Assembly (NCBI GenBank): GCA_965248435.1
Contig: OZ252100.1
Span: forward strand, 4,224,001-4,288,000
Source of the DNA: Candidatus Latescibacterota bacterium
Lineage (GTDB): Bacteria > Latescibacterota > UBA2968 > GCA-2709665
Length of the DNA: 64,000 nt
Reading direction: 5' to 3'
Below the pieces are notes generated by a model. The model had not been told where the DNA came from, did not search any database, and saw only the letters and a list, made by a program, of their open reading frames with translations. This document shows, one piece after another, positions 38,373 to 39,651 of the stretch. The first letter of the stretch is position 1. Each line of letters opens with the position of its first letter. The position numbers and the translations under genes were made by a program.

Positions 38373-38457
38373 AATCAGTCCAGAGTCAAGAGTCGAGAGC
38401 AGAAGCTGCGAGCGATGTGGGAATGGGGCTTAATGGCCGTAGCAACTGTCTTGGGTG

Positions 38458-39408
38458 TCAAGAAGAACGAGCGTAATCTGCCTGCCAGGGTTTGTGGTCT
38501 CTAATGATCGCATTCACGATGATCAGCAACTTACGCATGCACGCTGTCAGAGCGAGTTTCGCAGGCTTTCCCGCCCCACGCAATCGCTGGTAGAACTCTT
38601 GAATGACCGGATTGTATCGGGCGGCAACCAAGGTGGCCATATAGAGCACACGACGTATCTGAGGTCTTCCGCCCCAGACCCTTCGTTTGCCTCGATATTG
38701 GCCACTGTCGCAGTTGAAGGGCGCTACGCCCACCAAAGCCGCGATTTTCTTGTGGTTGAGCTTGCCCAGTTCCGGTAGCCCAGCCAAAAGGCAAGCTGAA
38801 GTCACCGTGCCGATACCGGGCACGCTCTGGAGTAAGTCGTCCTTTTCACGCCATACAGGCGTGGATCGGATCTGTCTGCTCACGTCGTCATCCAGGTCTT
38901 TGAGACGCTTTTTCAGCCAGGTGATGTGGGCCTTGATGTCGGCCTTCATTGGCGCTGATACGCTGCGCATACGGTTTTGCTCAGCCGTGATCATGTCGAC
39001 GATCTGGCGCCTGCGGGTCGTCAAAGCCGAAAGGGCTCGGTCCTGCTCTGACGGCACAGGGCCAGGCACGGGACGGACGGTAGCACCAAAATGGGCAATC
39101 ACGACTGCGTCGATTCGATCGGTCTTGGCCAAGCGGCCGGTGGCCTTGGCAAAATCCCTGACCTGACGCGGATTGACGACCACCACTGGAAGACCGGCCT
39201 CATACAGGCTGACGACAACCGGGATCTCGAGGCCACCGCTTGCTTCCAAAACGACCAATTTCGGATCTTGTTTCTTGAGCTGCTTGACAAGACCTTTGAG
39301 ACCGGTCAGATCGTTCGAGAAGCTCCACTCGGGACCGATGGGGTTACTGGCACCGTCTAACTTCGTCTTGCTCACGTCTATACCGATAAACACTTCAGAG
39401 CTCACCAT
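38458..39408 (-). CDS. IS110 DEDD recombinase
   Basis: GIDVSK, LEASG, KTDRIDA, DSG serine loop; AAGGAGG RBS before MVSS. Confidence 0.95.
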
Positions 39409-39424
39409 GCGTTCCTCCTTTAGC

Positions 39425-39590
39425 ACCCAGCCTTGCAATGCGGGCTTTGAGCCCTCGCAACTGTTCGGGTTATTGGGAGGCAGAGAACGTGACGACCCAA
39501 GCTACGGCGCGGCCTTTGTGACCAAGGGGCAACACGGTCTGTCACGCTCGGATTCGGAATTACCGAATATAGCGCTCCGATCTTAGCGAC
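39425..39590 (-). ncRNA. Predicted IS110 bridge RNA
   Basis: Two stem-flanked internal loops carrying target-matching (GCCCCT, GCCGTAG) and donor-matching (ACAGTTGC, TGCAAG) guides; ends approximate. Confidence 0.8.
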
Positions 39591-39651
39591 TTCAAGATAC
39601 AAGGGGCGGGCCCCTGTGCCCGCCCGGAGAATCAAATGAGAATATCGAATG

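Follow-up and report, generated by a model that had tools for sequence, protein, structure and literature searches.

An IS110-group insertion sequence with a predicted bridge RNA in a GTAG-type REP hairpin of a Latescibacterota genome

Repetitive extragenic palindromic (REP) sequences have long been known as targets of insertion sequences of the IS110 group. The bridge-RNA mechanism of one member of this group, IS621 of Escherichia coli, has been described by Durrant et al. 2024 (PMC11208160) and Hiraizumi et al. 2024 (PMC11208158), and two further IS110 elements, ISPpu10 and ISPpu9 of Pseudomonas putida, are reported to lie in REP sequences (bioRxiv 10.64898/2026.03.19.712850; PMC12288879). 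According to the preprint, the left target of ISPpu10 is the 3' arm of a stem-loop positioned directly before the CT core. Here, we describe an IS110-type element within a 64,000-nucleotide stretch of contig OZ252100.1 from a Candidatus Latescibacterota bacterium, the whole of which is called the window. The element spans 39601-38441 on the minus strand (1161 bp), the strand of all features below unless another is named, and carries a CT core at both junctions. We read it, with a probability of about 0.9, as a natural IS110-group insertion sequence that encodes a bridge recombinase and a bridge RNA and has entered a GTAG-type REP hairpin at the CT. Its anatomy, its family membership, and the match and covariation of its guides with target and donor are read directly from the sequences compared here. 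Both the mechanism and the targeting of REP sequences by IS110 elements are already in print, and since 2024 an element of this kind is ordinary for the field, if unusually clean; it is a fresh member of a family with a known mechanism and does not change what is known of that mechanism. Its clade may already appear among the predicted bridge RNAs catalogued in the supplement to Durrant et al. 2024.

The features described for IS621 recur at this locus. In both elements, a DEDD RuvC-like domain is combined with a Tnp domain bearing the catalytic serine, a long left end encodes an RNA in which a target-binding loop is followed by a donor-binding loop, and joining of the ends rebuilds a predicted σ70 promoter. 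Loop order, the strand senses of the guides and the inclusion of the CT core within all four pairings likewise agree with the published account (PMC11208160). Both elements target a REP sequence and share the same cut point in GTAG, IS621 at ATCAGGCCTAC (PMC11208160) and the present element at CCCGCCCCTACGGC; by our own reading, the IS621 target would correspond to the GTAG head of the E. coli REP. In contrast to these likenesses, the protein is distant from that of IS621 (151 bits over ~304 residues), the donor reads ACAGTTG-CT-TGTATCTT, and the −35 box overlaps the stop codon, leaving a right end of 17 nt. The right target guide is 7 nt long, as in most of the clade, rather than the 4 nt described for wild-type IS621, although longer right target guides are noted for other orthologues (PMC11208160). 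For IS621, weak RNA expression from integrated copies and inefficient excision have been reported (PMC13626964).

With ISPpu10, the element shares a G+C-rich stem-loop whose 3' arm lies directly 5' of the CT, here an 8-bp hairpin at 39625-39604. Unlike ISPpu10 and ISPpu9 as they are described, it resides in another host lineage and another REP family, and is present as a single copy rather than several. The ISCro4 transposase (9t56) belongs to the same fold family by sequence, aligning with residues 7-310 of the protein described here (E 1.5e-41, 146 bits), yet it too is distant. No paper was returned by a literature search that combined the right-end motif with IS110.

The element, its transposase and its REP target

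Read along the minus strand, the locus consists of the REP hairpin, the CT, the left end, an AGGAGG, an ATG at 39408, a frame of 316 amino acids, 17 bases and the right flank. An earlier note, prepared from the letters of the window, had placed the system at 38431-39625; that span contains the element but also takes in 22 nt of left flank, the REP hairpin, and 10 nt of right flank. The cores, flanks, guides, promoter boxes and stems named in that note were all located exactly where it had put them; the CT cores lie at 39603-39602 on the left and 38442-38441 on the right. Across the family, CT occupies the left junction in 65 of the 67 loci that could be parsed, the other two (L069 and L070) having CA. 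The non-coding left end (39409-39601, 193 nt; family lengths 149 to 248 nt with the core counted in) starts with TGTATCTTGA, so that core and left terminus read CT-TGTATCTT, and the right end, together with its core, reads ACAGTTG-CT (38449-38441) and stops 17 nt past the stop codon. Each of these features matches the family's terminal consensus: CT followed by TGTATCTTGA on the left, TTGACAnnnAAGACAGTTGCT as the right terminus, and a distance of 17 nt from the stop codon. The proportions of the two ends, 193 nt against 17 nt, are those of the IS110 group, as are the CT at both junctions and the single CT in the empty paralogous site described below; long sub-terminal inverted repeats are not apparent, no tool-based search for them having been made.

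The frame at 39408-38458 encodes the transposase, preceded by AGGAGG (39419-39414). Its domain order, a RuvC-like DEDD domain followed by the IS110-specific Tnp domain, was established by matches to PF01548 (DEDD_Tnp_IS110; 90.6 bits against a cut-off of 29) and PF02371 (Transposase_20; 70 bits against a cut-off of 21.3). Residues 7-310 align with the IS621 transposase in structure 8wt6 (E 3.7e-43, 151 bits), and this alignment places D11, E55, D97, D100, S235 and G236 opposite chain residues 13, 62, 104, 107, 243 and 244. Assuming two additional N-terminal residues in the chain (328 versus 326), the aligned residues would be D11, E60, D102, D105, S241 and G242 of IS621, which Hiraizumi et al. 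2024 (PMC11208158) report to be essential. The claim that the DEDD and serine residues are intact is thereby borne out by alignment to a structure. The nearest proteins in a collection of 5.8 billion are unnamed (96%, 73%, then at most 67% identity); on these comparisons it holds that the element is probably uncharacterised, the studied IS621 and ISCro4 being distant.

The left flank of the element on the minus strand is CCGCCC and the right flank ACGGC, which reads on as ACGGCC. The REP hairpin GGGCGGGC-ACAGGG-GCCCGCCC (39625-39604) has a stem of eight pairs, all G-C, and its 3' arm constitutes the left target; the right target, ACGGC (38440-38436), makes up with the core, on the opposite strand, the REP's GTAG side. 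The 24 bases of left flank recur at G000:C1:4358275-98 in the same genome, where an uninterrupted paralogous REP at G000:C1:4358270-4358282, just past a stop codon, reads GGGCGGGCACAGGGGCCCGCCC-CT-ACGGC. An empty target of this kind had been deduced in the earlier note, and it is present in the genome as a paralogue. The hairpin at the left flank, the empty paralogue and a REP-like family in the genome together uphold the assignment of the target to GTAG REPs: the 8-mer GCCCCTAC (GTAGGGGC on the other strand) lies at the foot of a hairpin at 80 of its 169 genome sites, in several sub-families, and these many hairpin-foot copies have the form of GTAG-head REPs. Counting both strands, the 5.67-Mb genome contains 864 CTACGGC sites, directly preceded by GCCC in 14 and by TGCCC in three; the 11-nt specification would be satisfied by a random junction about once per million positions. 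In a genome of the same genus (G001), a neighbouring gene was found at 78% identity, but the sequence beyond it is unrelated and without a REP, making it uninformative for an empty orthologous site. Five genome matches to PF01797 (Y1 transposase) were also observed, two of them strong and in 159-aa frames; these are candidates for the REP-associated tyrosine transposases (RAYT) that would spread GTAG REPs, or they may be TnpA proteins of IS200/IS605 elements.

The left-end RNA and its guides

A scan of one genome per species revealed 79 loci whose encoded relatives are 52-59% identical to the transposase, in Nitrospirota, Chloroflexota, NC10, Gemmatimonadota, Actinomycetota and other groups. 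Most of them share the left end CT-TGTATCTT and the right end TTGACAnnnAAGACAGTTGCT, the latter usually terminating 17 nt past the stop codon. A covariance model (R1) was built from 62 of these orthologues with the window excluded; it matches the window over its full length at 39552-39424 (98.7 bits, E 1.7e-22), and this is the sole match in the entire genome. Together with the Pfam assignments and the IS621 alignment, this match bears out the earlier assignment of the locus to the IS110 group with a two-loop bridge RNA in its left end.

In the RNAalifold consensus of 63 distinct left-end cores, a 9-bp outer stem is followed by a 2-bp clamp and loop 1, and then by a 4-bp stem that leads into loop 2. 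Loop 1 has an inner hairpin with unpaired segments on its 5' and 3' sides, and loop 2 is built likewise around a 4-bp hairpin. The left end thus has the two internal loops bounded by covarying stems that are expected of a bridge RNA. Compensatory changes are found in every pair of the outer stem (in one example, CG 31, UA 24, GC 3 and AU 2), the named helices are 92-100% paired across the family with changes on both sides in 20 of 29 pairs, and the covariation score of 0.387, against 0.167 for shuffled alignments, was reached by none of 500 shuffles. The closing stems CGTGAC/GTCACG and ACCC/GGGT that the earlier note had pointed out are both present, each within a helix that covaries in the 63 sequences. 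The four guide segments are unpaired in this fold, in line with the looped-out guides that the earlier note called for.

Loop 1 contains the two target guides. The left target guide, GUUGCCCCU at 39533-39525, ends in six bases that equal the left target plus the core (DNA GCCCCT at 39530-39525, RNA GCCCCU), an assignment made from the sequence and from comparison of guides across the family. The right target guide, GCCGUAG at 39508-39502, is the reverse complement of CT-ACGGC at seven of seven positions, the match length usual in the family. Together, the loop 1 guides specify GCCC-CT-ACGGC, which is exactly the sequence of the empty site.

Loop 2 contains the donor guides. The left donor guide, AACAGUUGC at 39465-39457 (DNA ACAGTTGC at 39464-39457), equals the right end ACAGTTG-C and matches it at eight of eight positions; the right donor guide, UGCAAG at 39437-39432, pairs with the left-end CTTGTA at six of six positions, one of them a G-T wobble. 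These two guides specify the joined ends ACAGTTG-CT-TGTA. The wobble, which had been noted before, is more frequent in the family than any other form; a few orthologues carry a perfect UACAAG. The pairings of loop 1 with the target and loop 2 with the donor follow the published strand logic.

To what extent guides and flanks change together was determined on the 79 loci plus the window. Fixed motifs served to delimit guides and flanks: the left target guide was taken as the 9 nt preceding the inner hairpin, the right one as the 9 nt up to and including a conserved AG, and each flank as 9 nt. Of these 80 elements, 67 were parsed, yielding 51 distinct guide pairs; the 13 dropped comprise three with flanks that were too short, four with no recognisable end or loop motif, four that did not fit the right-guide pattern and two without a donor-loop anchor. 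Scoring matches at the five positions adjacent to the core, the right target guide reaches 4.53/5 against its own flank (37 of 51 perfect) and 1.48/5 against the flanks of other elements (0.75% perfect); the left target guide reaches 3.78/5 and 1.99/5, respectively, the former figure being lowered by one-base register slips in some rows. When the pairings of guides and flanks were permuted, the observed sum was not attained once in 10,000 trials. The guides of the window match their own flanks at nine of ten non-core positions (right guide 5/5, left guide 4/5), and the flanks of the 50 other orthologues at six of ten at most. The left donor guide behaves similarly: among 44 distinct combinations, it matches the right end at eight of eight positions in 39 and has one mismatch in the other five, and it tracks the variant right ends in eight combinations (ACAGCTGC, ACAGTCGC, ACGGCTGC, ACGGTTGC four times, and ATAGTTGC). 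The claims that loop 1 fits the target CCGCCC-CT-ACGGC, that loop 2 fits the donor, and that all four guides obey one strand logic, which had been made from a single sequence, have therefore been found base for base and extended by covariation across the family.

Two further observations concern the guides of the orthologues. Several of these (L012, L018, L020 and L029-L036) are present in multiple copies within single genomes, with identical guides and with flanks that share the guide-specified bases, and such copy sets could serve for work on target logos. The base following each 3' guide was compared by eye with position 7 of the other DNA (handshake guides); the orthologues are mixed, and we make no claim.

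A promoter is predicted where the ends join. The −35 box TTGACA (38461-38456) overlaps the TGA stop codon of the transposase, the −10 box TATCTT (39599-39594) lies in the left end, and joining of the ends yields TTGACA-17-TATCTT, with a spacer made of 15 right-end bases plus TG. The promoter that the earlier note had foreseen is recovered by this arithmetic, and both of its boxes are conserved in most orthologues, the −10 position reading TAT(C/G)TT. The left end also contains a σ70-like candidate site, TTGAAG-18-TATATT (39595-39566), with nine of 12 matches; two such sites were found where 0.9 would be expected, a weak excess. This site may be a possible RNA start in the integrated copy, and from it RNA would start just 5' of the target-binding loop with no circle required. 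In several orthologues, an A/T-rich hexamer is seen by eye at a similar distance.

RNA production, circle formation and catalysis, which we infer by analogy with IS621, would proceed as follows. The element would exit as a circle, and its joined ends would set TTGACA 17 nt before TATCTT, creating a promoter for a left-end RNA of ~165 nt. Loop 1 of this RNA would pair with both strands of GCCC-CT-ACGGC, its left guide binding the bottom strand and its right guide the top strand, and loop 2 would contact the joined ends ACAGTTG-CT-TGTA in the same manner. Strands would then be exchanged at the CT core by a tetramer of the DEDD/Ser recombinase.

Mobility of the element and rival explanations

Several observations weigh against this account of the locus. 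The element is single-copy, although 14 unoccupied sites fit the 11-nt specification perfectly, three of which fit 12 nt and so match better than the occupied site; the left target guide agrees with the occupied site at only six of nine positions (GUUGCCCCU versus CCCGCCCCT). A 3456-nt contig from another sample, ~97% identical to the window (46 other letters and 8 gaps), covers 37900-39508 across the same right junction, and the insertion is therefore shared rather than recent. The minimum-energy fold of the window RNA taken singly (−70.6 kcal/mol, z = −2.5) pairs GUUGC of the left target guide with GUAGC of the right target guide. This pairing can be formed in only 30.7% of family cells, compared with 92-100% for the real helices, and is therefore not conserved; it does not overturn the looped-out guides of the consensus. 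A scan against Rfam returned no family at the gathering score. The sole Rfam match was Xanthomonas sX15 (29.3 bits against a gathering score of 55; 39406-39562, plus strand), lying over the donor-loop motif. Complementarity of sX15 and asX7, and 10 homologues in one Stenotrophomonas chromosome, are described in PMC3300014, and the sX15 locus may itself be the left end of some IS110-type element.

The first of these observations bear on an alternative that we consider possible but not probable, namely that the copy retains its full anatomy but is immobile: fixed, vertically inherited, and silenced, poorly matched to its target or impaired by a cryptic substitution. In its favour, the copy stands alone among 14 empty perfect 11-nt targets in 5.67 Mb and shares its right junction with the ~97% relative, in which the listed differences are about equally dense in element and flank. 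Among 60 related genomes searched, element DNA was found in one, as a fragment of 69% identity, and the IS30-family neighbour described below, with ~32 near-identical copies, makes a contrast. The state of the element argues otherwise. Its frame is intact with all five catalytic residues kept, its two ends and four guides agree with the consensus of the family, and among the differences listed for the ~97% relative at least 24 lie in the gene, of which 14 fall at third codon positions, nine change the protein and none creates a stop, a pattern that suggests selection on the protein. In addition, copies ~92-95% identical occur in other contexts in other runs. These were found by comparing the 23 public runs that contain the stretch as contigs: in a contig of a third study, likeness to a ~92% identical copy ends 15 nt past the left end and 4 nt past the right, and this copy therefore lies in another hairpin with the same GGGGCCCGCCC-CT-ACGG, and a fourth run holds pieces ~95% identical. 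A metagenome scan for close relatives gave a best match of 61% identity and no independent insertions of the same element, and its loci were left out of the comparisons. The copy looks functional and gives no sign of recent movement, and on sequence grounds a functional-looking element with a low rate of movement would rank well above a dead relic. The description of the element as an active, probably uncharacterised ortholog programmed against GTAG REPs accordingly stands for the REP target and for its uncharacterised status, the nearest proteins being unnamed; the claim that it is active is unproven and somewhat weakened by the one copy, the empty targets and the shared junction.

That the guide-flank matches are a by-product of G+C-rich palindromes, and the left end merely a structured 5' leader of the transposase mRNA, is very improbable. 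Both the REP and loop 1 are rich in C and G, the count of the bare 8-mer GCCCCTAC in the genome shows no enrichment (169 versus 274 expected from base composition), and the left-guide score against unrelated flanks is not low (the 1.99/5 given above). Composition would not, however, distinguish an element's own flanks from those of others, as the permutation result and the 9/10 versus at most 6/10 of the window do, nor would it make the donor guide follow the variant right ends in 8/8 matching variant combinations, and the register and strand logic are those demonstrated experimentally for IS621, as reported in PMC11208160. Still less credible is an IS1111-type element with a seekRNA in a long right end. 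The transposase family is the same, but no long right end is present at this locus, which has 17 nt past the stop codon and 193 nt on the left, with the covarying RNA in the left end; the opposite end proportions are described for IS1111 (Durrant et al. 2024, PMC11208160).

Within our preferred reading of a bridge-RNA element at a GTAG REP, the almost invariant donor ACAGTTG-CT-TGTATCTT, the 7-nt right guide, the shrunken right end and the possible internal promoter make it conceivable that in this clade the RNA of the bridge recombinase is transcribed while the element is still integrated, and that the enzyme recognises a longer stretch of target than IS621 does, a proposal that we regard as doubtful. 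If true, it would represent a naturally more specific enzyme, and the internal promoter would bear on where integrated IS110 copies get sufficient bridge RNA for excision. More generally, the locus adds a natural bridge recombinase with clear boundaries, for which the same genome supplies an empty-site control and with which at least 51 orthologues of distinct guide pairs can be compared; the clade is widespread in environmental bacteria. Such sets help in choosing new enzymes for programmable DNA insertion and in studying the influence of guide length and target hairpins on specificity.

Some signals in the public runs were set aside. Apparent joints at 38463/38906 (X9) and 38549/39143 (X5), whose short sides measure 23 and 25 letters with 90% likeness, were given no weight. 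In the X1 contigs, depth is flat and equal across element and flank; this was rejected as a measure of copy number. The X15 contig, from an RNA library, was rejected as evidence for the bridge RNA since it runs into both flanks and may reflect DNA or read-through. At 38441, an 11-letter loose end in X9, GGGGAGTCCAG, hints at a copy with another right flank and is too short to interpret.

Neighbouring elements and minor observations

An IS30-family element lies at 39652-40706, ~26 nt from the REP hairpin, with its transposase at 39709-40692 on the plus strand (HTH_38 and a sub-threshold rve match). It has 39 matches in the genome, of which ~32 are near full length at 96-100% identity. In several copies, likeness runs 10-30 nt past the common ends; this element, too, may prefer a repeated target.

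A second IS110-family element is present in the genome as three identical ~1240-bp copies (G000:C1 near 1444290, 2066290 and 3861920) with a 363-aa frame. Its left end starts with TTGTATCTTGA, to which model R1 gave no match, and TTGACC is found in its right end. On the right, the flanks of the copies share ...GCGAACC(T/C)GCC, and the element seems to be aimed at another repeat.

Between the upstream gene and the element described here, a short heptad run (AGTCCAG, AGTCAAG, AGTCGAG) occupies 38376-38400, and one related contig carries an extra AGTCCAG.

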